Virus record (IMG/VR): IMGVR_UViG_3300014613_000001
Span: 64,001-128,000 of that record
Strand: one strand, 5' to 3'
Length of the DNA: 64,000 bases
Origin: a virus
The translations under genes were made by a program, and so were the position numbers. This document shows, piece by piece, positions 23,719 through 58,594 of this stretch. Below the pieces are notes generated by a model. It saw only the letters and a list, made by a program, of their open reading frames with translations. It made no database searches and was not told the origin of the DNA. Every line of letters starts with the position of its first letter. The first letter of the stretch is position 1.

Positions 23719-24603
23719 ATGACACGCCAAGGTGAAGAGCGTCTTTGGCAGCAACTTCAGGACGCCGAAGAGGAGAAGCCGATCGAGGAGGTCGAACCAC
23801 CGGCTGATCCGAAACCCGATAACGTCGAGAACGACAAGTCGGGAGATATGACGGTTTCGAATTTCTTGGCACACCACGATACCCATCCACTCGTGCTCGA
23901 CGCAGCTTGCCTGAAGGCGTTTCAGACGGACTGGTTGTGGTGGGAGCCTGAGATTATACACTCTGAGCTGCGGCGTGTGTTTGGGCAGTCAACGATCAGC
24001 ACCCTGAACTGGCAGCAGATCCAGGCGTGCAAGACCTGCCATGTTGTCCCGACCCCGTGGAAGGAGTGGGAGGTGTTCAACACTGTGATCATGGCGTTGA
24101 ACAACAACATCCCTGACTTTCACACCATGCAGAAGCCGAGCATCGCGCAGGTCATGGTGGGCCTGGATATCATGAGTCGGATCGACAGCCGACAGATGTT
24201 TTCGGAGGAAGTAGAGAAGTTCATTGCCGCCGTATTCTTGGAGGATGGCGTTTACTTCATGCCGCCTCCGGCAGATTTCGCGCAGGAGTGGGCGTCGAGG
24301 CCCGAGTACCGGTGCCGAAGGTGTGGACGCATTGATCGCGATGACATGAACGACATGTGCGATAGCTGCGGAGCGCCGGACAGTGAGTTGGAGCGGCAGT
24401 TGGCTTTCGACCCCGCCCCCGTCATGGCCAGGTACAATGAGTGTGTTCGTCTCGGAAACGATCGCGAGGACATGCTCGAGGAGACGATCATCGACGTTCA
24501 AACAGCGAAGCTCCTCCTCGCTCGAGAGTACATGCTGTTTCGGCGTCAGCAGTTGGAAGATCAGCTCAAGGTGGTGAACGATGCCAAGCCCATACGTGAT
24601 TGA
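23719..24603 (+). CDS. Hypothetical virion-region protein with C-terminal Zn finger
   Basis: Start at 23719 (AAGAGG SD) just after the array; CRRC...CDSC. Confidence 0.7.
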   Translation: MTRQGEERLWQQLQDAEEEKPIEEVEPPADPKPDNVENDKSGDMTVSNFLAHHDTHPLVLDAACLKAFQTDWLWWEPEIIHSELRRVFGQSTISTLNWQQIQACKTCHVVPTPWKEWEVFNTVIMALNNNIPDFHTMQKPSIAQVMVGLDIMSRIDSRQMFSEEVEKFIAAVFLEDGVYFMPPPADFAQEWASRPEYRCRRCGRIDRDDMNDMCDSCGAPDSELERQLAFDPAPVMARYNECVRLGNDREDMLEETIIDVQTAKLLLAREYMLFRRQQLEDQLKVVNDAKPIRD

Positions 24604-25489
24604 TCTGGCCTTCATCGACGCACAAGTTGACGAGATGGAGAAGATCGCCTTCCTCGGTAGCGCCTGGAAGGGTCTCCAGGCATCGAAACCTTTTGTGGGG
24701 CATCTTCTGGGAGCAGGTGCTGGAGCTGTAGCCGGTGGAGCAGCCGGAGCTGCGACAGCAGCTCCAGAGAATCGTGTTCGGCATGCTATCGGTGGTGCGG
24801 TGCTAGGTGGTATTGCTGGTCTGGTTCCAGGTCAGCTCGCTACGAAGGCTGGAAGGGCGGCTGTGGGGCGTCTTGGTCAACGTCAGCTCCACGGTCTGAC
24901 GGGCAAGCTGCCCGGGCACAGCTTCAAGAAGTCGCACGCGGTCGTAGGAGATGCTCGAACTGCTGCACTCGCCAAGATGAAATTCGACAACCCTGCTGTG
25001 CAAAGTGCCTCCGAGTTGAAAAAGGACATGTGGGGGCCCTTCAAGAATTTGCGCTCTAAGGCACAGTTTCGTGCACAGGAACATCAACGGTTTCTGGCAG
25101 CGAATGATCTGACGAACCTCCCCGGGTTGGTGAGGGGGTACGTGAAACCGGCTGCTGGTATTACACGTCGACAGATTCTGAAGTCCAATCTCCTGGCGCC
25201 TGGGATCGGTTTCGGCGTAGGTCTTCCGCTGGCCCTCACGGCTCCCTCCGCAGTGGAGTCTGTTCAGCAGCGGAGTATCAAGCCGCTGGCGCGCGGGGTG
25301 GTGGAGAACGCCAGCTTTGCGCTTGGCGGTGGCCTTCCGATTGGAGCCGCCATGGCTGCTGGGTATGGTGGATCTCGGCTCGCAGGGTTGATCGGTAAGG
25401 CTCCGCCAGTAACACAGCCAATCGCGCCCAACCGTACAACCAATCGTGCCCAACCGGCTATGCAGGGTCAAGTGATACCTGCGAGGTGA
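24581..25489 (+). CDS. DE(M)EKIA-leader, Gly-zipper membrane-like protein
   Basis: QVDEMEKIA followed by GAGAGAVAGGAAGAA, GGAVLGGIAG and further hydrophobic Gly-rich helices. Confidence 0.7.
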   Translation: MPSPYVIDLAFIDAQVDEMEKIAFLGSAWKGLQASKPFVGHLLGAGAGAVAGGAAGAATAAPENRVRHAIGGAVLGGIAGLVPGQLATKAGRAAVGRLGQRQLHGLTGKLPGHSFKKSHAVVGDARTAALAKMKFDNPAVQSASELKKDMWGPFKNLRSKAQFRAQEHQRFLAANDLTNLPGLVRGYVKPAAGITRRQILKSNLLAPGIGFGVGLPLALTAPSAVESVQQRSIKPLARGVVENASFALGGGLPIGAAMAAGYGGSRLAGLIGKAPPVTQPIAPNRTTNRAQPAMQGQVIPAR

Positions 25490-25493
25490 TCTG

Positions 25494-27359
25494 ATGTTTG
25501 GATATGGAGAACCGGTTGGTGCACAGCAGTCCCAGACCTCGGGCCGTATTCGGGGCTCGGGGAGGATCGAGGGGGTCAAGTACCCCTCGCCATTTTTTGA
25601 TCTGGCGCACACGTACCTGCCGAGCTCGGTCAAGCAGCTGTTTCAGTGGTGTCGGTATTTCTATCTGACAAACCCGCTGATCGCGACCGTCGTCAACAAA
25701 TTGGCCGAGTACCCGATCACCGATCTCGTGATCGACACTAATAATAAAGGGCTCAAGGACAAGTGGCAGGGGTTTTTTGATGACGACATCTTTTTGCAGC
25801 CGAGTCTGATCGACATCGGTCTGTTCTACACATGCTACGGGAACGCGTTGATATCCCTGAGCTTCCCGTTCGTCAAGTGGCTCAAGTGCGAGAAGTGCAA
25901 ACATGAGGTTCAGGCGAAGGAGGCGACGTACCAGTTTCGGGGGTGTAAGTTCCGCCTCACTTGCAAGAAGTGTGATCATCAAGGTGTAGCCGAGGTTCGT
26001 GATCAGTCGCTCTCCACAACATTCGGATCGCGTTTGATCCTCTGGAACCCAGAGGACATTGACATTCAGTACAACGATCTCACCGGAGAGACCGTGTACT
26101 ACTACACGCTCCCTGCGCATCTGAAGAGCGCCATTCGGGTCGGACGACGAGAAGTAGTCGACCGTTCTCCGCAGGTGTACATCGATGCGGTTCGTCTCAA
26201 TAAGTCGGTCGTCCTCGATGCTGACAACGTCTACCATCTCCGAAGGCCTTCGATCTTCACAGGTCGTTTGAACCGAGGATGGGGCACACCGCTTCTCATG
26301 CCGGTGCTGAAGGACACCTTCTATCTTCAGCTCATGAAGAAGGCGCAAGAGGCTGTGCTGCTCGAGCGCATGCTTCCTCTGAACGTCATATCCCCCGCCT
26401 CCGCAGCTCCAGGAGTGAATCCTTACGAGCTCACTAACCTGGATGATTGGCGAACTCACGTCATGGGGGAGATCATGAAGTGGCGGCGTGATCCTCTCTA
26501 CATCCCGGTCATGCCTCTGCCGCTCAATCACCAGGTCATCGGAGGGGATGGTCGAGCGTTGTTGCTCAACAACGAGATGCGTCAGATCTCGGATGTCATT
26601 GTGGCCGGGATCGGGTGCCCACCAGAGCTTGTCTACGGCGGGCTCTCTTGGTCGGGCTCCAACGTCAGTCTCCGGATCCTCGAGAACCAGTTTCTTAGGT
26701 ACCTGTCCGGCATGCTGCGCTTTATCAAGGTCTTCCTCATTCGACGAACCGCGGCGCACCTCGGTTGGCCGGCGGTGGATGCGCGGTTCAAGCCGTTCAA
26801 GATGGCTGACGATATCCAGCGCAAAGCGTTCATGCTGCAGGCCAATCAAGCGAAGTTGGTCAGCGACACGACTATGCGTGAAGAGATGGATCTCAGCCCG
26901 GATGGGGAAGATTCGCTCTTGAAGAGTGAGGTCAAGCGCCGTCTCGAGAGTATGGAAGAGCAGCAAATGGCCGAGGCCCAGATCGCCGGCAAAGCCAGTG
27001 TGCTCTCTGCGAAGTACGAGGCTCGTGCTCAGATGGCTCTGGCCGAAGAGCAGCAACAGATGAGTCAGGGAAGTTACGGTTCGGCTCAGGGCGAACCAGG
27101 CGCCGGCACAGCCGAGGCTCCGGTGTCTCCGGCACAGCCGGATGCAGCTCAGGGCGGATTCGCGCAGATGCTGCAGCGCCTACAACAGGTTTCTCCAGAC
27201 AGCCAGCAGGCGATCATCCAGCGCATCGCACAACAGAACCCACAGCTCGCCGAGACACTCTCCAAGCAGCTTCAGCCGGCCGCACCTTCCACAGACTCCT
27301 CTGCGGGTAAGCCCCTGCCAGAACAGCTTCCACCGCGGCGTGCAGCCAGCCCCGTGTGA
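25494..27359 (+). CDS. Portal protein (with Zn-finger insertion and Gln-rich tail)
   Basis: YLTNPLIATVVNKLAEYPITDL N-terminal portal-like motif, RGWGTP, IVAGIGCP.ELVYG and VDARFKPF.M.DD; size and context fit. Confidence 0.7.
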   Translation: MFGYGEPVGAQQSQTSGRIRGSGRIEGVKYPSPFFDLAHTYLPSSVKQLFQWCRYFYLTNPLIATVVNKLAEYPITDLVIDTNNKGLKDKWQGFFDDDIFLQPSLIDIGLFYTCYGNALISLSFPFVKWLKCEKCKHEVQAKEATYQFRGCKFRLTCKKCDHQGVAEVRDQSLSTTFGSRLILWNPEDIDIQYNDLTGETVYYYTLPAHLKSAIRVGRREVVDRSPQVYIDAVRLNKSVVLDADNVYHLRRPSIFTGRLNRGWGTPLLMPVLKDTFYLQLMKKAQEAVLLERMLPLNVISPASAAPGVNPYELTNLDDWRTHVMGEIMKWRRDPLYIPVMPLPLNHQVIGGDGRALLLNNEMRQISDVIVAGIGCPPELVYGGLSWSGSNVSLRILENQFLRYLSGMLRFIKVFLIRRTAAHLGWPAVDARFKPFKMADDIQRKAFMLQANQAKLVSDTTMREEMDLSPDGEDSLLKSEVKRRLESMEEQQMAEAQIAGKASVLSAKYEARAQMALAEEQQQMSQGSYGSAQGEPGAGTAEAPVSPAQPDAAQGGFAQMLQRLQQVSPDSQQAIIQRIAQQNPQLAETLSKQLQPAAPSTDSSAGKPLPEQLPPRRAASPV

Positions 27360-27368
27360 TAACCAGCT

Positions 27369-27408
27369 AAAAAGAAGGGGTGGGGAGGTCCGAAGACGTC
27401 CCCACCTC
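27369..27408 (-). terminator. Intrinsic terminator (minus strand)
   Basis: Stem GGGGTGGGGA (27377-86)/TCCCCACCTC (27399-408), then TTCTTTTT on the minus strand. Confidence 0.8.
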
Positions 27409-27424
27409 TGGCTGCACCGAGGAC

Positions 27425-27511: not shown

Positions 27512-27513
27512 AG

Positions 27514-27845: not shown

Positions 27846-30800
27846 ATGTCACGGCTTGACCCGAAAGACAGCTTTGCGGCACTGAAGGAAGGGGTGAAGA
27901 CGTCGATCAGTAGCACCTTCCCACAGGTTGGCGAAAAGAACACTCTTGATCTCGAGGACATCGAGATCACCGATGACATAAACGAGGCTGACTACACCGG
28001 GCAGAAGGACGCCAAGATCAACGGGCGAACTTGGGGCGTTCCTGTACACGCCACGATGGTGCTCAAGGACAATAAGACCGGGAAGGTTCTTGATCGGAGG
28101 CGACAGAAGATCGCCACGCTCCCAAAGGTGACCAATCGTTACTCCTACGTCGTCCAAGGATCAGAGTATCAGATCGACGGACAGTGGCGCCTTCGTCCAG
28201 GTGTCTACACGAAGGTCAAAGAGAACGGGGAGCTTGACTCGTTCTTCAACATCAAAGGGCGCCCGCTTCACGTAGGATTTGATCCTAAAGAGCGGAAGTT
28301 CAACATTCAGCATGGGGGCGCGAAGCCCCCACTCTATCCCGTCATGAAAGCTCTTGGTATCAGTGACGATACGCTGGAGAAGAAGTGGGGGAAGGATATC
28401 CTGGCTGCGAACCGGACAGATGCTCGAGGTCGGCCGCTCAAGGTCGACAAGGTGGCCATCGACTTTGCTCGTCGCATTGACCCTCGTGCAGAGGTAGAGA
28501 CCTTTGAAGACGCCTCTAGGGTCATCCAGACCAACTTTGAGCAGTCGGAGCTCCACCCCGAATCGACAAAGCGCACACTTGGAAAAAAGATCGATCGCGT
28601 CACTCCCGAAGCAGTGCTTCTCTCGTCGGGAAGACTCCTGGGGGTGGCTCGAGGAACTGAGAAGCCTGATGTTCGGGATTCGCTGGTGTTCAAGGACTTC
28701 CACGGTGTGGAGGATTTCGTCGCGGAGAGGATCACTGGACACGCTCCGACGATCGCAAGGCGGGTTGGGAATAACCTGGATAAGACCGACAAGATCAAGG
28801 ACATCGTCGGGCCCGACATGTACGATCGTCCGATCAAAGAATTCTTTGGGAAGGTGTCCCTGGCCAGTACACCTCCTCAGACAAATCCACTTCGAATGAT
28901 CTCTGGTCAGATGAAGACCACCATTGCTGGCGAGGGTGGTGTATCTGATGCGAATCGGATCACTGATGACGCAAAGCTCGTTGACCCATCGCACTTCGGA
29001 GTCCTCGATCCTCTGCACACACCTGAGTCTGTGAGCACGGGCGTTACCCTCCAGCTCACGCTAGGAGCTCGAAAGAAGGGAACTCAGATCGTAGTACCCC
29101 TGTACGATGTCAAGTCTGGGAAGACGAAGTTGGTCGATACCGCAGAGGTTCACGACTCGATCGTCGCGCTCCCGGATGAGGTACAGAAAGTAGGGGGTGT
29201 GTACGTTCCGAAGAAGGGTAACCGGGTGTTGGCGAGCATCGCCGGAAACGACATGCGGCCCACGGCCATGAAAGATGTGAAGTACATCGTTCCCCACTCG
29301 AGTCAAATGTTCTCGCTGGCGACCAACATGGTGCCCTTCATCAACAGTGATTCTCCAAACCGCGCCACGATGGCTGGGCGCCATATGGAGCAGACGATAC
29401 CCGTCGTCGACGGCGAGGTCCCGCTTGTTCAGTCCACGATCGGGGGGAAATCGTTCGACGAAATTATCGGTCGTTTTGCTTCCAGCAACGCGCCGGTGGG
29501 CGGAAAGGTAACGAAGATCACTGAAGATGCCGTCATGATGAAGTCGGATGACGGCAAGTCACATAAAATCCCGATCTACAACCACTACCCGCTCAATGAC
29601 AAGAAGGGATTTATGCACAGCACACCGACGGTCCAGGTCGGTGAACAGATCAAGAAGGGTCAGCTGCTCGCAGATACGAACTTCACGAAAGGCGGAGTGT
29701 ACGCCCCCGGGAAAAATCTGACCGTGGCGTACATGCCGTGGAAGGGTCTGAACTTCGAAGACGGTGTTATCGTGAGCGAAGAGGCCGCGGCGAAGATGAC
29801 CTCGATGCACATGCACAAGAAGGGGCTCTCGACGCGGGATGCGACTCTTGATGGGAAGAAGAAGTACCAAGCCCACTACCCGAATCAGCTGACGAAGGAA
29901 CGGGCCGAGAAGCTCGACGATGATGGCATCGTCCGTATCGGGCAGAAGGTCAAGCCGGGGGATGTGCTGATCGCAGCTCTTGGCGAGCAGGTGCTGACGA
30001 CTGAGCAGCAGAAGATGCGGCTCCTCCATCGCAGTCTTGTACAACCGAAGAAGGACAAGGCTGTGACCTGGCAGGAGGACTTCGAGGGCGAGGTCGTGGG
30101 GGTGAACCGACGTGGGAAGCACGTCGATGTCCATGTAAAGACTATCGAGCCCATGGAGATCGGAGACAAGCTCGTAGGCCGCCACGGAAACAAGGCGATC
30201 GTCACTGGTATCCTCGCCAAGGGTGAGATGCCTCAGACTCAGGATGGCCGACCTGTCGAGATCCTCATGAATCCGATTGGTACTCCGGGCCGCATGAACG
30301 TCGGACAGGTACTCGAGACAGCGGCTGGGAAGCTGGCGGAACACCGGGGTTCTCCTTACAAGGTCGAGAACTTCTCCGAGGAGGACAACCTCGAATCCGT
30401 TCGTAGTCAGCTTGCGGCAGCTGGCCTCGACGATAAGGAGGATCTGATCGACCCCGGCACGGGGAAGAAGATCCCCGGGGTACAAGTCGGGAAACAGTAC
30501 ATCCTGAAGATGGAGCACCAGGTCGGGAAGAAAATGGCGTCTCGTGAGCGTGATGCTTATGACCAGAACATGGTCCCTCGAGGTGGTGGGAAGCACGGAG
30601 CCCAAGCTCTTGGTGGGCTCGGCGTGTACGCCATGCTGGCTCACGGCGCGCGTGAGAACCTGCGTGAGATGCAGGTGAGCAAGACCGACAAGGATCAGAC
30701 GGACGAGCTGTGGACTGCCATCCAGACCGGAGAGCTCCTCCCGCCACCGAAGACGACCTTCGCCTACAATAAATTCAACGGGTACCTCAATGGAATGGGG

Positions 30801-33800
30801 GTGAACGTACACAAGGACGGCAACAGTCTGAACCTGATGCCGATGACGGACGCCGACGTGCTCAAGCTCTCGAACGGGGAGTTGAAGGACGCTGGGCGTG
30901 CCCTGAAGGCCAAGACGCTGAAGCCGGAAAAGGGTGGTCTCTTCGACGAGAAGATCACAGGTGGGATGGACGGGAAGAAGTGGGGCCACATCAGGCTCGC
31001 TGTACCTGTTCCGAACCCACTGTTTGAAAAGGCCGTCATGAGTCTGACAGGCCTCCGAGGACCGCAGTTCAATCGCATCATCGACGGCGACGCTGGTGTC
31101 ACGGAAGATGGGAAGATTGTTGACGAGGTTGGCGTGAAGGGGGCGGTCTACGGTCCCCCGGCTGTTGGCCGTCTCCTTGATAAAGTTGATGTCACGGCAA
31201 GTCTTGCCGAGGAAGAGAGTCGTCTGCCCAAGCTGAAGGGCCAACTCTTGAACGAGTCGGCCAAGAAGGTCAAGTACCTTCGAGCGTTGAAGAAGCTGGA
31301 TATGACGCCGACCGCGGCGTACATGACGCAGAACGTCCCTGTGTTGCCGCCTTCGATGCGTCCGATCTCTGTGATGGAGGACGGAAGCCTTCAGACGGAC
31401 GACCTCAACGAGCTCTACAAGGGCCTAGCGATCGTGAACGCGAAGCAGAGAGAGTTTCCAGCCGGGACTCCTGAGTCGCTCAAGGCTCCTATCGCTGCGA
31501 GTGTGTACGATCATATGAAGGCGTTGACGGGTAATGGCGGGACGCTCAACGCGAAGCACCCTGGCCTTCTGGAGATAATTGCCGGGAAGAACGGGCCCAA
31601 GACGGGCTTCGTCCAGAAGACGTTGATCAAGCGAAAGCAGGATCTCTCGGCGCGCTCGACCATTGTTCCTGATCCGACTCTCGGGCTTGACGAGGCGGCC
31701 ATTCCGCGGAAGGCCGCAAAGGAGATCTACAAGCCATTCATCGTCAAGGAGCTTCGAGCTATGGCCGGTACCTCACCGAACGAAGCCCGGAGGATGATTG
31801 ACGAGGATGACCCTCTTGCTCGAAGAGCGCTCGAACGTGTGGTAGAGAAGCGTCCGATCATTTTGAAGAGGGATCCGGTTTTGCACCGATACGGCGTCCA
31901 GGCGTTTAAGCCCAAACTTGTGGACGGTAAGGCGATCAAAATTCACCCTCTGGTGTGCTCGGGCTACAACGCGGACTTCGATGGGGACACCATGAGCGCC
32001 TTCGTTCCGATCTCTGATAAAGCGGTCGCCGAGGCGCACAAGATGTTTCCGTCGAGCAACCTCTTCAGCCCCGCCACACACGGCGTCATGTACGCGCCAT
32101 CCCACGAGCAGCAGGTGGGGTTGTTCATGGCGACCCAGGTCGGGAAGAGTACGGGCAAGAAGTTCAAGGATCTGAAGGAGGCTGAGAAGGCGTTCAATGC
32201 TGATGAGGTCGGACTCACGGATGTGGTGAGTGTTGCCGGTGCGACGACGACGCTTGGGCGATCACGAATAGATGCCCAGTTACCGACGGAGATGAGAGGC
32301 GGCAAGATCCTGACGGATCTGCAGTACAACCTTACGAAGAAAGAGCAGGGGCAGCTATTCAACGAGATGGCGCGTGGCAATCCTAAGAAGTACCCAGATC
32401 GTGTCAATAAGCTCAAGGATATCGGGAATGACACCGCCTCTACCCAGGGGTTCAGTCTGGGGCTCGAGGACTTCAAAGTTCATAAGGAGATTCGTGATCC
32501 TATCCTTCTACATGCGGCCGCTAGATCAGCGAAGCTGGACTCGAACAAGCCTGCCGATGTCTCGAGAATAGTGGATATCTACGCTGACGCTATGGAGAAG
32601 ATCGAGACCGGTGTCATGGCCAAAGCGAAGCGCGGCACGTCTCAGCTTGACCGTCTTCAGAACGCAGCGGGTATCAAGGGCGGGGGTTATCGCCAGCTCA
32701 CTGCGGCCCCTGTGCTCTTTGTAGATGGAAAGGGAGACGTTGTCCCGAATCCCGTGACTCGCTCCTATGCTGAGGGGCTGTCCACAACGGCTTATTGGAG
32801 TGCAACGAGCGGCGGTCGTAAGGGCATCGTTCAGAAGGTGCAAAGCGTCTCGGAGCCAGGCTATCTCACCAAGATGATGACGAATTCTGTCATCGATCAG
32901 CTCGTCGACAAAGATGACTGCGGGACTGATCGCGGTATATCATTGTCCGTCGACGAGCCAGACGTGGTCGGTCGATATACAACAGCGGGGCTCAACCTCG
33001 GACGGGGAAAGGTGATCCCCGCGGGGACGATGCTCACACCCGACGTCCTGACAAAGATCAGGAACAGTAAGGCTTCAGCGAAGGTGGTCGTGCGCTCTCC
33101 GATGAGATGCACCCATACTCATGGCGTGTGCCAAAAGTGCATGGGGCTAAACGAAGACGGCCAGCTGAACGACTTTGGCACGAATGTCGGGGTTGCAGCT
33201 GCACAGGCTCTCGGGGAACGAGGCACACAATTAGCAATGAAGGCATTTCATTCTGGGGGTGTTTACGAGGGAAAGGGGACGAAGTCCTTGACCGGGGAGG
33301 GTCTTGATCAGGCGACGAGCATTCTGTACTTGAGACAGAAGGTGAAGGGGTCCGCGGTGCTCGCGGACATCGGGGGTAAGATTCGCAGGATCAAGAAGGA
33401 TCCTGCTGGCGGTGCTCGAGTAATGATCGGAGAGAACGAGGTCTATGTTCCCTCCGATCGGAAGATGCTCAAGAATATCCGTGTGGGCGAGACTGTGAAG
33501 CGCGGAGATCAGCTGACGTCCGGACCTGTGAACCCACACGAGCTTCTACCACTAACGAACGTGAACAAGGTGCAGGGACATCTAGCAGGGGAACTGCACA
33601 GCATCTACGGTAGTCAGGGTATCCGGCGTCGTAACTCTGAGGTGCTGGTACGCGCGATCTCAAGTGTGACGAAGGTGGAAGACTCCGGTGGCCACCCAGA
33701 TCTGCTTCGGGGGGATTTTGCCAACACGGCGATGATCCAGGACTGGAATAAGAAGCACAAGGACGCGGCTCCGGTTCGTCATGTGCCGGTCCTTCGGGGT

Positions 33801-33993: not shown

Positions 33994-34359
33994 ATGATCG
34001 ACTCGATCAACACGGTTCGCTACGACGCATTCTTTGATGAACTCGGGCAGATCGAGAAGAGAGCAATGTTGACCAGGGTCGCGGCTCTCAGTCCGGGCTT
34101 TGTTTCGCAAGTCGTTCGTGGCGGGAGGCAAATCCTCACCAAGCCCGGAAACGCGGTCAAGGCCGTCCGTACTGCCTACGGTCGTGGATCACGAGTTGCC
34201 GCACAAGCTGGAGGTGGTCGACTCTCACAGCTTGGCGGTGGTCTGGAGCGCGTGTGGAAAACCCCACAGGGCAAGGCAGCGGTGGTCGGCGCTGGCGCTC
34301 TTGCGGGTGGAGCCGGGCTGGTCGGTACCGGGGCTGTATTGGGCCGAGCTACCGCATAG
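33994..34359 (+). CDS. FDEL..IEKRA-leader small Gly-rich membrane-like protein
   Basis: DAFFDELGQIEKRA leader; C-terminal AAVVGAGALAGGAGLVGTGAVLG. Confidence 0.7.
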   Translation: MIDSINTVRYDAFFDELGQIEKRAMLTRVAALSPGFVSQVVRGGRQILTKPGNAVKAVRTAYGRGSRVAAQAGGGRLSQLGGGLERVWKTPQGKAAVVGAGALAGGAGLVGTGAVLGRATA

Positions 34360-35517: not shown

Positions 35518-35807
35518 TGGCGCTCAATGAAGCGGTTCTGGCTAACCTGATCGCTGACATCTATCATCTAGAGATGGTGGCTGCCTTCCCTACGGTGGTC
35601 AAAGGTGTTGAGGTCATCGAGGTCCCGCGAGAAGATGGGACGATGAGCTACGATGTGACACTGGTTCGAGGCCCGAATGAGCCAGACGAAGCGAGTATCC
35701 GCCCGATGGCCAATGCTATCGCACAAGCAGTGATTCGGCACATCAAGGCCCATGCAGAGGTGAATGACACTGATGCCGGCGCCGGAGGTAGTTGGAGGAT
35801 TTTATGA
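35514..35807 (+). CDS. Small baseplate-associated protein
   Basis: 97 aa, translationally coupled to the spike gene. Confidence 0.55.
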   Translation: MMALNEAVLANLIADIYHLEMVAAFPTVVKGVEVIEVPREDGTMSYDVTLVRGPNEPDEASIRPMANAIAQAVIRHIKAHAEVNDTDAGAGGSWRIL

Positions 35808-47952: not shown

Positions 47953-48798
47953 ATGGACGACTTTCTTGCGAATTACTACGGAACAGGGACCGGAGCAGCC
48001 GAAACCACCAACGACGAGATCGAGAAGCTGGCGCAGCTCACCCTCCTGGCTCAGGAGGCTGAGGAGCAAGGCATCGATCTCGGTCAGTTCACCGAGGAAG
48101 AGATCATGAAGGTCGCCTCCGAGCGCTACGGTGGCGGCGAAGCTCAACCCGAGTACGACCTCGAGAAAGAGGCCGCGGCCAAGTTCGAAGAGGCCGACTT
48201 CCTCGGCCGTGTCATGGCGCACAGCATGGTGCAAGAGCTGGGTGAGATCGAGAAGCAGGCCAACTGGGCCGGGGATCTCGCGCGCAAGGGGTGGGCGGCC
48301 ACCAAGGCAGCTCCGGGCAAGGCGTATGGGAGTACCCTCGGAGCCGTTGGTGGGAAAGCTGAAGAAGCCGTCGCCAAGAGTCTCCGTGAGGGTGGCAAGG
48401 GCAAGACATTCAAGTCCCTCATCCATCGTCTTGGTGGGGGCAAGGGCCTCAAGAGCGGAGACACCTATCGAAAAGGCTCCGAGCGCCTGGCTCGCGGTGC
48501 CAACATCGCCGCTCAGGTCGGTACCGGTGCTGCTGCTGCCGGCGCTGCCGGGGGTCTCGGCTACGGCGGCTACCGGGGCGTCAAGGCTCTGAGAGACAAG
48601 AAGTCCGCCGACTCGGCCTTCGAGCAGGTCGTCATGCAGCGGGCATACGATCACCTGGCATCGGGCGGCTACGACGCGGACGCTTTCTTCGGTGTCGGGC
48701 AGGAGAAGACGGCCGCCGACGAGTTCGAAGCCACCGTGGATCGCGCTGCCCTCGAGTTCCTCGAGGCCAACGGTGTTCCCATCGCGTGGAACGAGTAG
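47953..48798 (+). CDS. Acidic scaffold-like head protein with several K-x-A motifs and a Gly-rich insert
   Basis: EIEKLA, EKEAA, EIEKQA, KKSA and EKTAA motifs. Confidence 0.6.
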   Translation: MDDFLANYYGTGTGAAETTNDEIEKLAQLTLLAQEAEEQGIDLGQFTEEEIMKVASERYGGGEAQPEYDLEKEAAAKFEEADFLGRVMAHSMVQELGEIEKQANWAGDLARKGWAATKAAPGKAYGSTLGAVGGKAEEAVAKSLREGGKGKTFKSLIHRLGGGKGLKSGDTYRKGSERLARGANIAAQVGTGAAAAGAAGGLGYGGYRGVKALRDKKSADSAFEQVVMQRAYDHLASGGYDADAFFGVGQEKTAADEFEATVDRAALEFLEANGVPIAWNE

Positions 48799-48813: not shown

Positions 48814-49095
48814 ATGATCGGAGCGGTAACCATGACGGCAATGGCGGATGAGATGTTGAAGATCTCAGCAGTTTCAGCGCCATCCGTCGTGGCCCCTCCG
48901 GCTCCGGGTGGGCTTACAGGAGCTCTCAATGCGAAACCTGCGGCTCCTGTCAGTCCGGGAACGATCCAGGCCAAGGCGCTCAAGAGTACGAACTTGCAGA
49001 AGACAAACTACACGACGGTGAGCACAAAGCTCCCGACGCCGAACTTCAGTATGACGGCCGGGCAAAAGGCGATGACGCCACCGCCCGTCGGCTGA
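48814..49095 (+). CDS. Small DEMLKIS-leader protein
   Basis: MADEMLKISA then a Pro/Ala/Thr-rich tail. Confidence 0.6.
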   Translation: MIGAVTMTAMADEMLKISAVSAPSVVAPPAPGGLTGALNAKPAAPVSPGTIQAKALKSTNLQKTNYTTVSTKLPTPNFSMTAGQKAMTPPPVG

Positions 49096-49111: not shown

Positions 49112-50155
49112 ATGGGGTTCGATCTGAATCAAATGATCCAGCAGGCGCTCAACGAAGGTCGGGCCTCGGGGCATACGAAAATCGCCGAGGAGGTCGAAGG
49201 CGGCGCCTGCGTGAGTTGCGGCCGACCGGCTGTGGCAGATTCGAAGTACTGCCGAGAGTGCGCCGAGAAGAAAGCCAAGAAGGAGCAGCAGCAAGCTGCC
49301 CCCGGAGGCGAAGAAACGGAGAAGACTTCTTCGGAGCGCGTGGAGAAGTTGGCAGCCGCCGTCGAGTACGCCCTGTACAACCGATCTTGGATGGGTTCTG
49401 CAGGCCACGTCAAGGCAGCTGAGGGAGAGGGGGTCAACACGACTGGCCCTGCTCGCGGCCCCAACACGCTCCCAACTAACATCGCGTCTCCGACCACCGA
49501 CAAGATGCCGGAGCAATTCGGCGGCGGGGCCAAGACTGTCCCGCCCGTGAAGCCGGCGCTCGAGGCGGGTGCCAGTCCGAAAGCAGCGACCAACGCTATG
49601 CAGACGGACATGAATGCCCGTCCCGGCGGACCCGGGAACTACCCAGAGGATGGAGTTCTCGTGCAGAAGACAGGGGCTGCTGCGGCCATCAAACAGGCCA
49701 TGCTGAAGCGAGCGCAAGACGGCGACTCCACGACCATCACGACACCCAAGACCCAGACCCCGACGACACCTGAGGACCAACCTTCTCAGATGGCACGTCC
49801 TGCAGAGGTCACCAGCCAGGAGAAGATGATCGCCTCGAACGAAGCGGCCATCGACTTCACCAAACGAGATGCCAAGGCGGTACCGAAGAAGCGGATGGGA
49901 GAGGTTCTGGATGAACCCGCCCAGAGCAAGAGCGGAGACAGTGTGCTCCAAGATGCTCTGGGGTCGGACCTGGTGAACCAGGCTGGGGCCAAAGTGGCTT
50001 CTGCTCTGGACGCCGTGCAGAAGATCGCAAGTGAAGGTTGCCAATGCGGCGGCCAAGGAGCTTGTAACTTCTGCAAGATCGCTTCTCGAGTCGAGCAGAA
50101 GAGGCAGGGACTGGTTGGCTCCCGCGCCGTCGCTGCTCATGGTATGGGCCGGTAA
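49112..50155 (+). CDS. Scaffold-like disordered head protein with two Cys clusters
   Basis: CVSC...YCREC and CQC....C..C; KIA/KVAS/KIAS motifs; GGAGG SD. Confidence 0.55.
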   Translation: MGFDLNQMIQQALNEGRASGHTKIAEEVEGGACVSCGRPAVADSKYCRECAEKKAKKEQQQAAPGGEETEKTSSERVEKLAAAVEYALYNRSWMGSAGHVKAAEGEGVNTTGPARGPNTLPTNIASPTTDKMPEQFGGGAKTVPPVKPALEAGASPKAATNAMQTDMNARPGGPGNYPEDGVLVQKTGAAAAIKQAMLKRAQDGDSTTITTPKTQTPTTPEDQPSQMARPAEVTSQEKMIASNEAAIDFTKRDAKAVPKKRMGEVLDEPAQSKSGDSVLQDALGSDLVNQAGAKVASALDAVQKIASEGCQCGGQGACNFCKIASRVEQKRQGLVGSRAVAAHGMGR

Positions 50156-50164: not shown

Positions 50165-50527
50165 ATGGAAAAGCTCAGCGCAGACAAAGTCCTTGCCGTC
50201 TTCGGATCGGTTCCTTCGACGCTCAGAAAGCTGGCCTCGGAGCGGGACGCGGCACAGGTCGAAAACCTGGAGCTCAAGCGTCAGCTTCGTGAACTCCGGC
50301 TGAATGAGCGTGTGGAGAAGATCGCTCAGGAGGTTCACGACAAGGGCATTCAGCAGGGCCGAACCGTGGAAGAGACGAGAGAGTTCCTGCTTCAAAAGGC
50401 TGCTGCGGGGAAGCTCGACATCATCGAGCAGGCCGTCGACATGACGTCCCGTCAAGCAAGTCTTGGAATCCTTGGGGATCTTCCCAAGGGTGGGGAGAGC
50501 TCTCTCGACGAATTCGTCGTCAGCTGA
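50165..50527 (+). CDS. Coiled-coil scaffold/head assembly protein
   Basis: AAGGAGG SD; EKLSA, RKLAS and EKIAQ; ends LDEFV. Confidence 0.6.
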   Translation: MEKLSADKVLAVFGSVPSTLRKLASERDAAQVENLELKRQLRELRLNERVEKIAQEVHDKGIQQGRTVEETREFLLQKAAAGKLDIIEQAVDMTSRQASLGILGDLPKGGESSLDEFVVS

Positions 50528-51043: not shown

Positions 51044-52174
51044 ATGAACAACCTACCTGCAGAGGTGTGGAACGGCATGTTCCTCGACAAACTCAACACC
51101 GCGGAGGGCAAGGAGAAAGTCGCCGAGTTCGGTGGCGAATACATCCGTGACCACCTGCGTGAGGTTGCGTTCTGTCGGAACATCATTCCGCCGGTCAACG
51201 TGACAAAGAGCGACGCCCGCGCGTCGATCCACCACGATACCCTCGTGATGGTCGAGGAGATCGAGCCTCAAAGCCGCGCGATGACGCTCAACTTCCGCGG
51301 CCAACCCGATGTCCGCATCATCCGTGCCGACAGATGCGAAGTTCCCTTCTTCATGATCAGCTCCGAGCGGTTCGAGAAGTGGGAAGAAGAGCTTCTCGTC
51401 TACCGGATGAAGATCACCAAGGTGATCGAAGACAACAGCATCAAGGACATCCAGGAGATCGAGGACCGCGAGTTCTTGATCCACTGCGAGGCGGCATGCC
51501 AGGCGCTCCAACAGGAAGCCAACGGCGGCGCCGTTACGTCTTTGCATCAGACCACCATCCTCGCCGGCACCGTCGTGGAGAGCTCCATCCGCAAGGGTGC
51601 GCTCGCCCGCGTCGATGCCAACAACGACAGCTTCGTCTGGCCGCTGCAACGCCAAGACATCATCAACGGCCACAAGCTCCTGGATGGCAACCGTCTCCGC
51701 TGCGAGAAGGCTCTGCTCACCGAGTCGGACTTCGACGACGTGAACCAGTGGACAGTCGAGGACTTCGGCGACAAGCTCCAGTCCGAGACCGCCGTGGAGG
51801 GCTACAAGTACTCCACCCTGATCGGACGTGGGTTCGTCCGGACCATAAAGACGGACATCCTTCGCCCCGGGAACGTGTACTTCTTCACGTCCCCGGACTT
51901 CCTGGGCCGGTTCTACATCTTGAACCAGGTCAAGTTCTACATCGACAAGGTGGTGAACTTGATCACGTGGCAGGCGTGGGAGACCATCGCAATGGCGATC
52001 CTCAACGTCGCCGCGGTTCGAAAGATCGAGCTGTACAGCGGTGATGCCACTGCCAACGACACCGACGGTATCGTGGCGGCGGGGACTGTCACACCGGTGG
52101 CCGAGGAGGATCTCGGGGCCATGAACAACCGAGTCGCGGACGAGGTGTTCTTCCCCGCGATACACTTCTTCTAG
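51044..52174 (+). CDS. Major capsid protein (HK97-like fold)
   Basis: 376 aa with very strong C/G-ending codon bias, AGGAGGAG SD and a downstream terminator. Motifs IRDHLRE..FCR.IIPP, IQEIEDREF and LRPGNVY. Confidence 0.85.
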   Translation: MNNLPAEVWNGMFLDKLNTAEGKEKVAEFGGEYIRDHLREVAFCRNIIPPVNVTKSDARASIHHDTLVMVEEIEPQSRAMTLNFRGQPDVRIIRADRCEVPFFMISSERFEKWEEELLVYRMKITKVIEDNSIKDIQEIEDREFLIHCEAACQALQQEANGGAVTSLHQTTILAGTVVESSIRKGALARVDANNDSFVWPLQRQDIINGHKLLDGNRLRCEKALLTESDFDDVNQWTVEDFGDKLQSETAVEGYKYSTLIGRGFVRTIKTDILRPGNVYFFTSPDFLGRFYILNQVKFYIDKVVNLITWQAWETIAMAILNVAAVRKIELYSGDATANDTDGIVAAGTVTPVAEEDLGAMNNRVADEVFFPAIHFF

Positions 52175-54037: not shown

Positions 54038-55303
54038 ATGTCCCTTGATGATTTTGTGACTGAGGGTACGGGCCTTCCGTGGGTAGAGGCGGCGGCCTTC
54101 TGGGTTGATCTTCATCGACCGTATAGACAACCAGTTTTGACAAAGAGCGCGGCTCTGGGGATGCTCAAGCTCGGGTACATCCGCAAGCGGGCCATAAGCG
54201 AAGAGGAAGCGATCAAGGAGCAGCAACGCGCTGCCATGACCGATCCGAACGTCGTCTCCGCTCTGGACTACCAGGAGCAGCAGGCGGAACGAGAAGAGCT
54301 GCAGATGGCCGTGCAGCAGCTTCAGCAGCAGCTCGAGCAGACTCAGCAATCCGCGGCTCAAGCCGATCAGATGGCGCAAGAGCAATCTGCTGCAAACCAG
54401 GAGCTGCAAGCACAGGTGCAGCAGGCAGCGGTCGCACAGCAGGCCGCAACAGAGCAGATGATCGCGGCCAAAGATACGGCGATGCAGGAGCAGGTGACCA
54501 GCCAGCAGAACAGAGAGCAGCTCATGCAGGCGGCTGATCAGCTGGCGCTGCAGCTCAAGCAGGTCGCCGCCCAACCTACGCAGTCCGAGCAGACTGCGAC
54601 GGCTGAACAGCAGCAGATGCAGCAGCAGGCACAGGCCGCTGGTGCACCAGCAGAGGGTGAGCAGCCTCCGCCCTCCTCGCGTACTGAGAAAGAGGTCACA
54701 GAGGCTCAGAAGGCCCAGGAGCAGGCAGCACGGCAGACAGAGCAGGCCCAGCAGTCCGCAGCCCAGGACCAGGCCAAGGTCCAGGTCAACGTCGGCGGGG
54801 CACCTCAGCCTCCAACCACCGCCGCCAGTCCGGTGAAGACCGGATCGGATCGTTCTGTCGAGCTCATGGCCTTGCTCGATGGTCACGTGAAACAAGGTTT
54901 CGACAAGGTCCGAGCGGCCTATGCAGGAGGGGGCGCAGTTCTTGGTGCCGGTCAAGCGGGCCTCGAACAGATGCTCAATCGGCGGAAGCACGGGAAGGAC
55001 GCGCCGTCTGACAAGGAGATTGATCTGTCGGCCAAGCTCCAGGCGGCGCAGACCAAAGTGAAAAGGGATCCGACCTATGCGAACAAGGGGGTCGTCAGCG
55101 CACTCCGGTTCCGTCACGACCTTGCGCAATCTGGAAGAGAGCACCCTCTCGGTGCCATGGGTAGGGGTGCAGTGCAGGGAGCTGTCCTGGGTTCTATCGC
55201 CGGTCCAAGCGCCCATAGACTGGGAGGCTGGGTCAAGAAGCTCGTCCAGGCCCGGGGTGCAGCAGCCGCCGCCGCGAAGGCTGCCAAAGGAGCCGTGTCA
55301 TGA
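54038..55303 (+). CDS. Gln/Ala-rich coiled-coil protein with C-terminal Gly-zipper helices
   Basis: Long QQ/AQ coiled coil; YAGGGAVLGAG and GAVQGAVLG. Confidence 0.7.
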   Translation: MSLDDFVTEGTGLPWVEAAAFWVDLHRPYRQPVLTKSAALGMLKLGYIRKRAISEEEAIKEQQRAAMTDPNVVSALDYQEQQAEREELQMAVQQLQQQLEQTQQSAAQADQMAQEQSAANQELQAQVQQAAVAQQAATEQMIAAKDTAMQEQVTSQQNREQLMQAADQLALQLKQVAAQPTQSEQTATAEQQQMQQQAQAAGAPAEGEQPPPSSRTEKEVTEAQKAQEQAARQTEQAQQSAAQDQAKVQVNVGGAPQPPTTAASPVKTGSDRSVELMALLDGHVKQGFDKVRAAYAGGGAVLGAGQAGLEQMLNRRKHGKDAPSDKEIDLSAKLQAAQTKVKRDPTYANKGVVSALRFRHDLAQSGREHPLGAMGRGAVQGAVLGSIAGPSAHRLGGWVKKLVQARGAAAAAAKAAKGAVS

Positions 55304-56715
55304 ATGCGTTTGACCAAGAAATCGAGCTTTTGAGCTCACGAGAAACTGCCGGTGATCAGTTCCGTAAGCTGGCCGCGGAGATCGACACGGCGAACTTCAT
55401 GAACAAGAAGAACCCTGTCACCGGTCATTCCGGTGTCGACGCCGCCTCTGTCGAGGAAGGTCTGGCTGCGGTCTTAGCCCGGAAGGGTAAGCGGAGCTTC
55501 GACGACACCATTCCGAAGGAGCGCAAAGAGTTCACCCCCCGATACGATGAGATGCCCATCATCACCCCGGCACTGGGGGCACCCCTCGCTGGCAATCCCA
55601 AGGGCTCGGCTGTGGTCAAGACGGCCTTGGAGATGGAAAAGAAGGCGTGGTTTCACCTCAAGCGCGAGGGGGATGTACAACGCCAACGGCTCACTATGGT
55701 CAGAGACCGCATCAGCGCCCCTGACTGGGATCGTGAAGTGGGCCGGAAGAAGATGGATCACTTCAACAACTTCCTGGCCATGGCCGAGCAGAGAAAGGGG
55801 AAGGCGCTCACCAAAGAAGAAGTAGACATCTTGATCACGTCCTATAACAAGGCGACGGGCACCAGCGTGCCACTGACCGAGGATTGGCACGGTGGCAGCG
55901 TCCCCTATGAAGCCTTCGAGGGTTCGAAGACGAAGACCGCCGGAGGTATCCTGCGCCCTTTTGATCCTTCTTTTCTAAAAAAGTTGGGTGAAGAAGCGGA
56001 AAGGGCGACTGAGTTTCACATCCCCACCAAGTTCACCCCAAAGCAGAAGGCCGGTTTGATCGCGGGTGGAGCTCTTACGGCCGGAACCGGCCTCGGTCTC
56101 GGTGCACTCGGGGTTCATCGGGCCGCAAGAGCTGAGAAGGATGTTCGAGATCTTTCAAAGAAAACGATCGCCGCACTTGGCACCGCGGGGTCGGATGTCA
56201 GTAAAGAGGTGATGCGGGTAGGCGGAGCGATGGCGGGAGGTGCTGATAGTTTACGAGAGGCCAGTGAAAACGTGAACAAGGTCGTGAAACCGATCGCAGA
56301 CACCGTAGAAAAGGTGCAAGGGGGGAAGAAGGCTATCGTCGATGCTGTCGAAAAGACACTGGCCAAGGCGCCGCAAGCTCAGAAAGTTGTGGCTGATACG
56401 GCTAGGAGTGGTGGAAGAGTCATTGCTAATGCCGCGCACGGCGGAAAACAGGCTATCGTCGATGCCGTTCACAGCGGGGGCAAAGCTGTGATCAGCAAAG
56501 CTCACAGTGGGAGAAAGGTTGTTTCGAACGTCGCCCGGGGTGGGAAACAGGCGGTCGTCAATACGGCTCAAGCTGCGAAAGCCGGGACGGGTAAAGCGCT
56601 GTTCCGTGTGCTCAGTCGCATAGCGAAGTACAGCCACGACACGAACTCCCGTGACATGTACATCAAGCTCGCCTCAGCGGGGCAGCTTAGGACTTTGGAG
56701 GGGTGGAACCAATGA
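55300..56715 (+). CDS. K-x-A protein with TM helix and ~11-residue amphipathic repeats
   Basis: RKLAA, EKKA and KTAG; GLIAGGALTAGTGLGLGALG; GGK(Q/K)AIVDAV-type repeats. Confidence 0.65.
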   Translation: MNAFDQEIELLSSRETAGDQFRKLAAEIDTANFMNKKNPVTGHSGVDAASVEEGLAAVLARKGKRSFDDTIPKERKEFTPRYDEMPIITPALGAPLAGNPKGSAVVKTALEMEKKAWFHLKREGDVQRQRLTMVRDRISAPDWDREVGRKKMDHFNNFLAMAEQRKGKALTKEEVDILITSYNKATGTSVPLTEDWHGGSVPYEAFEGSKTKTAGGILRPFDPSFLKKLGEEAERATEFHIPTKFTPKQKAGLIAGGALTAGTGLGLGALGVHRAARAEKDVRDLSKKTIAALGTAGSDVSKEVMRVGGAMAGGADSLREASENVNKVVKPIADTVEKVQGGKKAIVDAVEKTLAKAPQAQKVVADTARSGGRVIANAAHGGKQAIVDAVHSGGKAVISKAHSGRKVVSNVARGGKQAVVNTAQAAKAGTGKALFRVLSRIAKYSHDTNSRDMYIKLASAGQLRTLEGWNQ

Positions 56716-57089
56716 TCAGTTTTATCTCGTTCAGTGATGAGCTACAGAAGATCGCCGCGGAGGGTGCTGGGTATCGAGCTCCCACCACTTGGGATCGTCT
56801 TGGCCCAGAAGGGTATCTTGGAGAGGCGATCCCTAACGATCCTGAAGAGCGTAAGCAGAGGTATCTTAGCCGAACTAAATTTCTTCCCGTGACTTCGGGA
56901 CTTCTTGGAGGAGCTGGTATGGCGCTTGCCGGGGGGTCGCATGCTGGGGGAAAGGGCGCGCTTATCGGCGGTGCTCTCGGAGCTGCAGCCGGTGCAGGAG
57001 GATCGCTTCTTGGTAGATATCTGGCAGGGAGACATATAAAGACCAAGGCAATGGAAGAAGCTCTGGTTCGAAATACGAAGGCAAAGTAG
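56712..57089 (+). CDS. FSDELQKIA-leader Gly-zipper protein (paralog 1)
   Basis: MISFISFSDELQKIAA; GLLGGAGMALAGG...GALIGGALGAAAGAGG. Confidence 0.75.
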   Translation: MISFISFSDELQKIAAEGAGYRAPTTWDRLGPEGYLGEAIPNDPEERKQRYLSRTKFLPVTSGLLGGAGMALAGGSHAGGKGALIGGALGAAAGAGGSLLGRYLAGRHIKTKAMEEALVRNTKAK

Positions 57090-57970
57090 TGCTCCGTGTC
57101 AAAAACCTCGTTGTGAAGTCCCTCGATGTTGATCACCTGGACTTGTTCTGGGAGATTGGGGACACCTATGCGGACCCATACGACTACACGTTCGTCGTGG
57201 AACGGAGTGAGTCACCCGAGGGCCCGTGGGATCAACTGAGCGAGGCCTTCTCGGACAAGTATTTCTTCCGAGATGTGATGACCCGGCAGTTTCACCGCCA
57301 TCGGCAGCTCTGGTATCGGATCAAGATTACACGGCTGTCGGACAGCAACGTGGTCTACTCTGGTCCTTCGGCCCGACAGCCCCAGCCCGACCTCATCGCA
57401 CAAGAAGTTCGTAGGCTGGAGTTCCTTTTGTTGAAGGAGCATGTCGGTCGGACCGTATGGCTCTTCCCAGTTCGAACATTTGGCCAGCGCTGCCGCGCAT
57501 GCTACGATCCGGTCTCCAAGACGCGGACACGATCCAACTGTCTCACGTGCTACGACACAACCTACGTTCGCGGGTATCTTGATCCCATTGCACTTCCGAT
57601 CCAGATCGACCCCTCGCCAAAGGTCACACAGCAGACGGCGATGATGGAGTCTCAAGAGCAGAATGTGACGGCGCGGACGTCGTATTACCCGCCCATCAAG
57701 CCACGTGATCTGATCGTCGAGGCCGAGAACATTCGGTGGCAGGTCTACTCGGTGTCAACGACACAGCGTCTCCGAGCTGTGTTGCACCAAGAGCTCACCA
57801 TGCACCGGGTACCGGAGACGGACATCGAGTTCCGGCTTCCGATCAACATCGACAGTCTCCGGGATCTCCAGCCGAGCCCGGGGCGCACTTTTACGAATCC
57901 GCATCACCTCGAGTGCGAACGCGGGGCTGATCTACGCACGAGCATGTTGAAAGGACACGGTCATGATTAG
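57089..57970 (+). CDS. Neck/head-closure protein with Cys cluster
   Basis: GQRC.AC.D......NCLTCY.T.YV.GY and GDL-like RDLIVE...RWQV patterns of myovirus head-closure proteins. Confidence 0.65.
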   Translation: MLRVKNLVVKSLDVDHLDLFWEIGDTYADPYDYTFVVERSESPEGPWDQLSEAFSDKYFFRDVMTRQFHRHRQLWYRIKITRLSDSNVVYSGPSARQPQPDLIAQEVRRLEFLLLKEHVGRTVWLFPVRTFGQRCRACYDPVSKTRTRSNCLTCYDTTYVRGYLDPIALPIQIDPSPKVTQQTAMMESQEQNVTARTSYYPPIKPRDLIVEAENIRWQVYSVSTTQRLRAVLHQELTMHRVPETDIEFRLPINIDSLRDLQPSPGRTFTNPHHLECERGADLRTSMLKGHGHD

Positions 57971-58256
57971 TTTCACAGCATTCAGTGACGAGCTACAGAA
58001 GATCGCGCAGTACGACCAACAGTACGATCCCGACAAAGGGGCCAAGATAGTCGGTGCGCTGACAGGTATGGGTTTGGGGGCAGCCGGCGGAGCGAAGCTG
58101 GTAGGGAAGTCGTTGGGGGGCAAGGCACGCATCCCTGCTGCTGTTCTCGGAGCTCTTGTCGGTGGTCTCGGAGGACGAGAGGTCGGTGAGGGGGCGGCCA
58201 CGGCAGGACGCGGTCTCCGCATGACGGCCGCGGGAACAAGGCAGGCGTTGAGGTGA
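57963..58256 (+). CDS. FSDELQKIA-leader Gly-zipper protein (paralog 2)
   Basis: MISFTAFSDELQKIAQ; GALTGMGLGAAGG and AVLGALVGGLGG. Confidence 0.75.
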   Translation: MISFTAFSDELQKIAQYDQQYDPDKGAKIVGALTGMGLGAAGGAKLVGKSLGGKARIPAAVLGALVGGLGGREVGEGAATAGRGLRMTAAGTRQALR

Positions 58257-58594
58257 TCGACTTCTCCTCATTCTCAGACGAGCTGCAGAAGATCGCGGCG
58301 GATACGGGGCCGACAAAGCCGATCAACAAAGAGCTCTTCATCCAGTTCTTGAAGAACACCGGGGCCATTGCTGCTGGTACGGGCCTCGGGTATGGGGCTG
58401 GGTCGCTTGCTCGAAATGCACTCAGTAGATATGCCGGACCCCGCTCGAGCTCGTGGAGAAAGCCGCTGGCTATCGGTCTTCCGATCGCGGGTGGCATGGC
58501 TGCTATGCTGTACAAGAGTGTGCTCGATAAGAAGAAGAACGAGCTCTTGGACGAGGCGTACCAGCGGGGGCTGAAAGAACGAAGTGCCAAGTAA
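58253..58594 (+). CDS. FSDELQKIA-leader Gly-zipper protein (paralog 3)
   Basis: MIDFSSFSDELQKIAA; GAIAAGTGLGYGAG and LAIGLPIAGGMAAML. Confidence 0.75.
   Translation: MIDFSSFSDELQKIAADTGPTKPINKELFIQFLKNTGAIAAGTGLGYGAGSLARNALSRYAGPRSSSWRKPLAIGLPIAGGMAAMLYKSVLDKKKNELLDEAYQRGLKERSAK

Follow-up and report, generated by a model that had tools for sequence, protein, structure and literature searches.

A putative capsid-targeting leader shared by unrelated basic proteins of an uncultured environmental myovirus

Introduction

Three open reading frames (ORFs) of an uncultured phage start with almost the same 15 residues and continue into bodies that bear no resemblance to one another, and the question is what purpose a common start serves on otherwise unrelated proteins. 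The ORFs begin at 56712, 57963, and 58253 of the 64,000-nt stretch analyzed here (the window), which corresponds to bases 64001-128000 of the complete 177,773-bp genome of a myovirus, IMG/VR record IMGVR_UViG_3300014613_000001; positions are those of the window unless genome positions are specified, and ORFs are named by their start positions. An initial annotation of the window proposed that the shared start is a modular address tag with a cleavage site, by analogy with the capsid targeting sequence (CTS) of phage T4, and that it loads membrane-active proteins into the head for ejection. The comparisons described here suggest that the leader is probably a T4-CTS-like propeptide that ends in the cleavage motif of the prohead protease, brings its bearer into the head, and is then clipped off.

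PHROGs matches in the window identify the large terminase (40799-42658), the major capsid protein (51044-52174), and the tail sheath (59430-62564). Relatives of the capsid protein are encoded on at least 235 IMG/VR contigs, several of them on complete genomes of 167 to 193 kb, and the best 80 of these at least 235 stretches are 59 to 82% identical. A sister phage with a 167,832-bp genome and four further complete relatives at ∼61% capsid identity are referred to throughout. The nearest isolated phages, Salmonella phage Arash and Vibrio phages such as D69, are distant, with capsid identities of 25 to 27%.

Results

The 15-residue leader M-I-x-F-x-x-F-S-D-E-L-Q-K-I-A heads ORFs 56712 (MISFISFSDELQKIA), 57963 (MISFTAFSDELQKIA), and 58253 (IDFSSFSDELQKIA, with a GTG start), together with two ORFs just upstream of the window; the first ORF truly begins at its ATG (56712), and the GTG that precedes it at 56703 is not its start. 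A profile of this leader, run on all 2,529 stop-to-stop frames of the genome, returns five copies at E ∼1e-10, all on the plus strand and at ORF starts, with the next match at E=0.19. Two of the five are the upstream copies, at genome positions 62251 and 63068. The bodies behind the tags cannot be aligned with one another, in agreement with the initial annotation of near-identical starts on unrelated proteins. The first ORF in the window (56712-57089, plus strand) codes for 125 residues, with the tag at residues 1 to 15 (56712-56756) and a predicted mature part of 110 residues that has an isoelectric point (pI) of 9.9 and a Gly/Ala-rich segment. The second (57963-58256, plus strand; tag at 57963-58007) codes for 97 residues, has a mature pI of 10.4, and has orthologues that are 60 to 70% identical in five other contigs, and the third (58253-58594, plus strand; tag at 58253-58297) codes for 113 residues with a mature pI of 10.1 and a body that clusters with six tagged relatives' proteins. 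Neither Pfam nor PHROGs yields anything significant for any tagged protein, and a database-wide search with the tag returns at least 14 proteins at E<=10, none of which is named or carries a Pfam domain.

Within the tag, positions F4, F7, D9, and E10 are invariant or almost so, and the leaders end in K-I-A followed by A, Q, N, G, T, or L. Alignment of the tag DNA shows serine encoded by both AGY and TCN codons, further synonymous changes, and unrelated DNA upstream, so that conservation acts on the peptide and not on the DNA. These patterns bear on the simplest account of the shared start, a functionless remnant of recent gene duplication. The tandem occurrence of tagged genes is what such an event would leave behind, but a remnant would not be expected to keep tags 80 to 100% identical ahead of unalignable bodies, to use serine codons of both families, or to persist in relatives at ∼60% capsid identity, and we regard this account as hardly credible. 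Two kinds of export leader were also considered and rejected. The leader is short and acidic, and as read from its residues has no basic n-region and no hydrophobic core, which speaks against a Sec or Tat signal; its ends are not the G-G, G-A, or G-S of double-glycine bacteriocin leaders, with which it shares a similar E-L-x-x-I spacing and an upstream spacing that is off by one residue.

A profile trained on the clade adds four weaker copies after the five strong ones, in 39228 (E 0.03), 24581 (0.12), 48814 (0.39), and 33994 (1.4), followed by a gap to E=23, and the totals are thus nine copies in this genome and nine in the sister phage. These four had been listed as variants in the initial annotation and stand as such, with the correction that the copy in 39228 is C-terminal and not at the start; the other listed variants, 37816, 45066, 45437, and 47953, have no match to the tag profile and carry only the K-x-A element, as E-K-x-A or L-G-K-x-A. 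Comparison with relatives backs all four, although not equally well. ORF 24581 (24581-25489, plus strand) codes for a basic protein of 302 residues that is rich in glycine zippers and whose tag, FIDAQVDEMEKIA, at residues 11 to 23 (24611-24649), is weaker. Its apparent orthologue in relative G002, recognized by eye through a stretch that the two bodies share, starts with a tag that fits the profile better, MMQSFADELKKLA. The 121-residue basic protein of 33994 (33994-34359, plus strand) has a split tag, FFDELGQIEKRA, at residues 13 to 24 (34030-34065); its orthologue in the sister phage, FFDELGEIEKRR, keeps FFDELGEIEK and thus retains the helix, having lost the K-x-A (K-R-R, not K-R-A). The variant MADEMLKIS (48841-48867) occurs in the 93-residue Pro-rich head-module protein of 48814 (48814-49095, plus strand), whose orthologues, encoded 2.2 kb upstream of the capsid gene, have AF-x-DE-L/M-x-KI clade-wide. 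Six minus-strand matches of an iterated profile (FSNFSDEMVKK; five in 32-residue frames and one in a 60-residue frame) look like false positives.

The tag recurs throughout the clade. All nine copies in the sister phage are strong, and six of them are in tandem; in the four complete relatives, a shorter tag, [FLM]-x-DEL-x-KI-[AGS], heads many diverse proteins. The tag profile has no match in phage Arash, and the tag is specific to the clade, whereas the short motif [LMIV]-x-K-x-A in which it ends is not. The copy in 39228 (39228-39530, plus strand; 100 residues) consists of a C-terminal K-T-A and then the tag FAGFTDELIKI (39465-39518), with the protein ending directly after the tag at a strand switch. 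It was first read as a mirror-image C-terminal tag, a reading weakened since relatives have the same tag within longer proteins. In this family, Y-x-K-T-A follows a conserved N-terminal domain in three of five relatives checked; in G003 the Y-x-K-T-A is followed by the tag and then a variable body, and in G005 the tag lies well downstream. Because the tag is found inside longer 39228-family proteins of two relatives, we take it to be a separable module. We note that the conserved N-terminal domain of the family (MPxWIHxRA...ATQQAH.LGK.PK) is fused in relatives to variable C-terminal bodies of up to ∼380 residues, some with glycine-zipper repeats.

The end of the tag, L-Q-K-I-A, matches a motif, [LMIV]-x-K-x-A, that is dense in the head-core proteins. 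The nine proteins encoded between 45066 and 52174 contain 16 copies versus 3.5 expected from shuffling of each protein (z=7.3), against z=1.0 for the rest of the genome, and the reversed pattern A-x-K is not enriched here, in Arash, or in D69, so that the K-x-A enrichment is orientation-specific. K-x-A lies within residues 8 to 33 of 14 of 30 virion and head proteins and of 13 of 174 others (Fisher p=6e-7), with sites clustering at residues 13 to 31 of many proteins, the capsid protein included, and relatives' alignments show these sites to be conserved far above the Lys background. The initial annotation was correct in noting that K-x-A recurs in the protease, scaffold-like, and large head proteins, and the motif is far denser in head genes than elsewhere, contrary to the refuting condition that the annotation had set. 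In the major capsid protein (51044-52174, plus strand), the N-terminal segment FLDKLNTAEGKEKVA (51080-51124) holds K25-V-A27, which is kept in 62 of 62 relatives. The scaffold-like protein (47953-48798, plus strand; 281 residues) has sites at K25, K53, K72, K101, and K252, of which those at 25 and 252 are kept in >90% of relatives and those at 72 and 101 are locally present in all.

Because the motif was defined on this genome, it was tested on Arash (locus 141714-160568) and D69 (locus 149362-168294). The Arash head module (gp218-226) has 36 sites versus 5.0 expected (z=15), with the first 50 kb and the tail genes flat, and the D69 head module has 35 sites versus 5.1 expected (z=12.9), with the downstream genes flat. 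The capsid proteins of both phages start ...F-I-D-K-[IL]-D-Q-G-L-x-K-E-A, a layout like the F-L-D-K-L-...-K-V-A of the capsid protein here. The likeness of the tag itself to this capsid N-terminal arm (F-S-D-E-L-Q-K-I-A compared with F-L-D-K-L...K-V-A) is suggestive only.

Sharing of this motif invites a reading in which the leader is an extended recognition and cleavage site for the protease, a plain propeptide without targeting, and the bodies handle head entry or act elsewhere. It is in keeping with the K-x-A end being the only part of the leader common to other head proteins. However, conservation extends as far as 8 to 12 residues ahead of the putative cleavage site, beyond the usual protease subsites, the unrelated bodies offer no common route into the head, and the internal position of the 39228-family tag in two relatives, just after K-T-A in one and well downstream in the other, suggests a separable module; we therefore think that a plain propeptide is unlikely. 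That the conservation reaches so far upstream argues instead for a docking role beyond the protease subsites.

The candidate for the processing enzyme is the product of 46003-47880 (plus strand), whose gene belongs to the head module and precedes those for the scaffold-like and capsid proteins, and its initial annotation as a protease is upheld by its fold. An AlphaFold model built with 24 relatives is confident for residues 1 to 262, in which the fold is that of T4 gp21, whereas confidence is low for the helical C-terminal part of ∼360 residues. The N-terminal domain superimposes on T4 gp21 (5jbl) with Z 12.0 and a root mean square deviation of 2.7 Å over 150/165 residues, the next-best structural matches being herpesvirus proteases (Z 5.6 and 4.2), and the top three Foldseek matches are likewise gp21 chains. 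Residues S179, H87, H122, and H123 are invariant in 24 sequences, and in a weak hhalign alignment (E 0.31) S179, the putative catalytic Ser, falls on T4 S140, with H122/H123 only a few positions away from T4 H85. A profile of the family finds nothing credible among PDB sequences, and a complex prediction of the protease N-terminal domain with the 57963 protein, at a score of 0.00, weighs neither way. The protease has conserved K-x-A/S sites of its own at 32, 266, 273, 311, and 380, and those beyond residue 262 fall in stretches with a predicted local distance difference test score (pLDDT) of <50. Because these sites lie in low-confidence linkers, the arrangement fits self-release, which is known for gp21-type enzymes (PMC7411985).

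The protease also helps to weigh a reading in which the tag and K-x-A are never cut and instead serve as docking motifs that bind a common head partner, whether scaffold, capsid interior, or portal. The density of the motif in helical scaffold-like proteins and the orthologue that drops the Ala and retains the helix are both compatible with docking of this kind. Against it stand the presence of a gp21-fold protease within the module, the position of sites at residues 13 to 31 of many proteins including the capsid protein, which is the usual place of a maturation cut, and the location of the protease's own sites in its low-confidence linkers. We consider uncleaved docking quite unlikely.

What the tagged proteins have in common behind the leader is charge. 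Among 41 distinct tagged bodies clade-wide, 40 are basic, with a median pI of 10.5 and net charges of +3 to +28, and they fall into 20 unrelated clusters. The eight N-terminally tagged proteins of this genome all have mature pI values of at least 9.9, and about a quarter of the genome's proteins are above 9.5. Hydrophobicity is less general: on the crude Kyte-Doolittle scale, a 19-residue mean of 1.6 is reached by only 2 of the 41 bodies, the maxima for the three leader genes are 1.39 to 1.42, and several tagged bodies are without any hydrophobic stretch. The protein of 45437, at 1.81, is the only one of the listed proteins with a transmembrane-grade stretch. Small-xxx-small zippers exceed the expectation from composition in three of the eight N-terminally tagged proteins (56712, p=0.004; 24581, p=0.01; 57963, p=0.03), whereas the remaining five show no such excess, and the view that most leaders are followed by GxxxG-rich hydrophobic helices is only partly borne out. 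The Pfam glycine-zipper models (PF13488, PF13441, and PF05433) give no match above threshold, since even the best score, 9.9 bits (E 0.94), falls short of the cutoff of 25, and the structural look-alikes in the Atlas are glycine-zipper families that match weakly to a low-confidence query model (pLDDT 0.57).

These data speak to the possibility that the leader acts independently of the capsid and targets small glycine-zipper proteins to the membrane of the host, where they would serve in lysis, in superinfection exclusion, or as an entry channel. The three bodies with an excess of zippers point in this direction, as do the structural look-alikes, which given the quality of the model are a lead only. 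However, the leader is acidic and short, lacks Sec or Tat features, and ends in a head-module motif, transmembrane hydrophobicity is confined to 2 of 41 bodies with several having no hydrophobic stretch, and the best Pfam glycine-zipper score is far below its cutoff; a host membrane destination is therefore very improbable. Given the basic pI, the few transmembrane-grade spans, and the lack of a Pfam glycine-zipper match, "basic internal head protein" fits these proteins better than "membrane protein," although the two are not exclusive, and the description of the cargo as membrane-active is not supported.

The initial annotation also envisaged a trans-envelope channel or a lipid-bound compartment for a virion RNA polymerase, for which we find no supporting evidence. 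A fused beta-beta' RNA polymerase of 2,076 residues is encoded within the virion module (27846-33992), and a check of five relatives shows neither a tag nor K-x-A to be conserved at its N terminus. The beta and beta' subunits of the Arash RNA polymerase rank among the virion proteins that were detected most in that phage (PMC10585845).

Several other proteins of the head and virion modules carry the short motif. The head-module protein of 49112-50155 (plus strand; 347 residues) is Cys-rich at both ends, with the motifs CVSCGRP...CREC and CQCGGQGACNFC, and K-x-A is conserved in it at 23, 79, 101, 294, and 304; the protein has no family match, and a profile built from its relatives finds nothing credible among PDB sequences. 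A coiled-coil-like head protein (50165-50527, plus strand; 120 residues) has conserved sites at K3 and K52 (VEKIA), and the 123-residue protein of 45066-45437 (plus strand) has DLGKTA at residues 26 to 31 and no tag. The 189-residue protein of 45437-46006 (plus strand) starts with MNPV-D/E-x-FL, followed by a spacer of variable length and then E-K-x-A, in which K15 is 89% conserved. This N-terminal element, M-N-P-V-[DE]-x-F-L in the 45437 family and M-D-D-F-L-A-N in 47953, precedes E-K-x-A at a variable distance and may be another docking element; Arash gp220 begins MDMSVDFLKN. In this genome, the 675-residue virion-module protein of 35792-37819 (plus strand) has an N-terminal DMPKVA (35843-35860) and three further motif sites, and the 471-residue protein of 55300-56715 (plus strand), with an N-terminal FRKLA (55360-55374), has no orthologue in the fetched loci of relatives.

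Two neighborhoods were noted in addition. A candidate portal protein of 621 residues (25494-27359) has only a weak portal match (PHROG E 0.0035); its gene is separated by ∼13 kb from the terminase gene downstream of it and by 19 kb from those for the protease and the capsid protein. In the genome stretch 56001-64000, the two genes with strong tag copies, at its positions 6251-6745 and 7056-7256, end a plus-strand block just before the window, and the neighbors of these two tagged genes code for proteins of 628 and 801 residues without a family match.

Discussion

The initial interpretation of this locus is partly supported. Its core, a modular address tag joined to a putative cleavage site in the manner of T4, agrees with the tag family and the motif enrichment, and its extension to a membrane ejection channel and a polymerase compartment is unsupported. 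In the propeptide model that we favor, the upstream part of the leader, F-x-x-F-S-D-E-L, would be a docking element that brings unrelated, fast-evolving, basic small proteins into the prohead core. The end of the tag, L-Q-K-I-A, is a strong copy of [LMIV]-x-K-x-A, after which the gp21-type protease of 46003-47880 is predicted to cut. At maturation, the capsid protein would be trimmed, the scaffold chopped, the protease freed via its own linker, and the tag clipped off the cargo, and the basic cargo would presumably stay in the head with the DNA, like the T4 internal proteins. Mechanistically, this would be what is already known from T4. For this phage, the analysis shows the tag family, an enriched and conserved motif, the fold of the protease, and bodies that are basic and unrelated, from which we infer targeting, a cut after Ala, and retention of the cargo in the head.

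Several observations weigh against this model. To our knowledge, known gp21-type proteases cut after Glu, and a cut after Ala would be a specificity new for the gp21 fold in phages. With K-R-R in the 33994 orthologue of the sister phage, cleavage need not extend to every tag. The two tagged genes at 62 to 63 kb of the genome lie outside the virion modules. The helical hydrophobic moment of the leader is not above that of shuffled sequences (p ∼0.2), and we therefore make no amphipathic claim for it. The short motif was defined post hoc from this genome, although it was subsequently borne out in two others, and cleavage, packaging, and ejection are all deduced from sequence and fold in this phage and its relatives. 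Finally, the Arash virion proteome has been published with proteolytic processing not mentioned (PMC10585845).

A broader possibility, which we hold to be doubtful, is that the tag is a portable loading module resembling the N-terminal propeptide of the capsid protein, N-terminal or internal beside a cut site, that loads a rapidly changing set of basic glycine-zipper proteins; these would be co-ejected and assist passage of the DNA and of the packaged RNA polymerase through the envelope, with the gp21-fold protease cutting after Ala like herpesvirus assemblin. Were this true, the phage and herpesvirus branches would be linked by protease specificity. The favored model, if confirmed, would add a new gp21-type substrate specificity (cut after Ala, Lys at P3) and provide a ready-made packaging signal with a simple sequence rule that predicts head-internal proteins. 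The rule would cover a large clade (at least 235 contigs) of environmental phages of ∼170 to 190 kb with no cultured member. Because the head modules of Arash and D69 carry the motif, the cleavage rule is directly testable on these isolates.

Among known systems, encapsulin cargo-loading peptides are a functional resemblance only: varied cargo enters a shell of the HK97 fold by means of a short portable peptide, but these peptides are usually C-terminal, are not removed, and are unrelated in sequence. Herpesvirus assemblins (the varicella-zoster virus and cytomegalovirus proteases) are the second-best structural matches to the 46003 N-terminal domain (Z 5.6 and 4.2), although far weaker than T4 gp21 and without sequence similarity. 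Assemblin cuts after Ala (V/L-x-A and then S), as we propose for the phage protease.

Closer parallels come from phages. In SPN3US and phiKZ-like giant phages, head and ejection proteins have N-terminal propeptides that are cut by gp245-type proteases at A-X-E (PMC7411985, PMC10052503), a motif that in SPN3US has been called reminiscent of T4 (PMC7411985, PMC10052503). As is predicted here, the capsid protein, many head proteins, and the protease itself share the cleavage motif; a targeting role has likewise been proposed for the propeptides, and an RNA polymerase is packaged. Their propeptides differ in being long (111 to 130 residues) and not a shared short tag, and the motif is another one.

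The T4 system is the nearest. The T4 internal proteins and Alt carry a CTS (Mullaney and Black 1996, as described in PMC7411985 and PMC3012670) of 10 to 20 residues, which attaches to the prohead core before gp21 takes it off (PMC7411985), and the internal proteins are highly diverse, with the tag alone conserved (PMC3012670). The sequences of the two tags are unrelated, and more copies are present here (nine, and nine in the sister phage), where the tag can also sit inside a protein after another site. T4 gp21 cuts after Glu, whereas the cut here would fall after Ala with Lys at P3, and removal, which is established in T4, is a prediction here. The likenesses are those of design: as in IPI, IPII, IPIII, and Alt, a short N-terminal peptide is common to unrelated, diverse basic proteins, the tag ends in a motif used across the head-assembly proteins with a putative role in cleavage, the head module includes a gene for a gp21-fold protease, and from one related phage to the next the cargo changes but the tag is kept.

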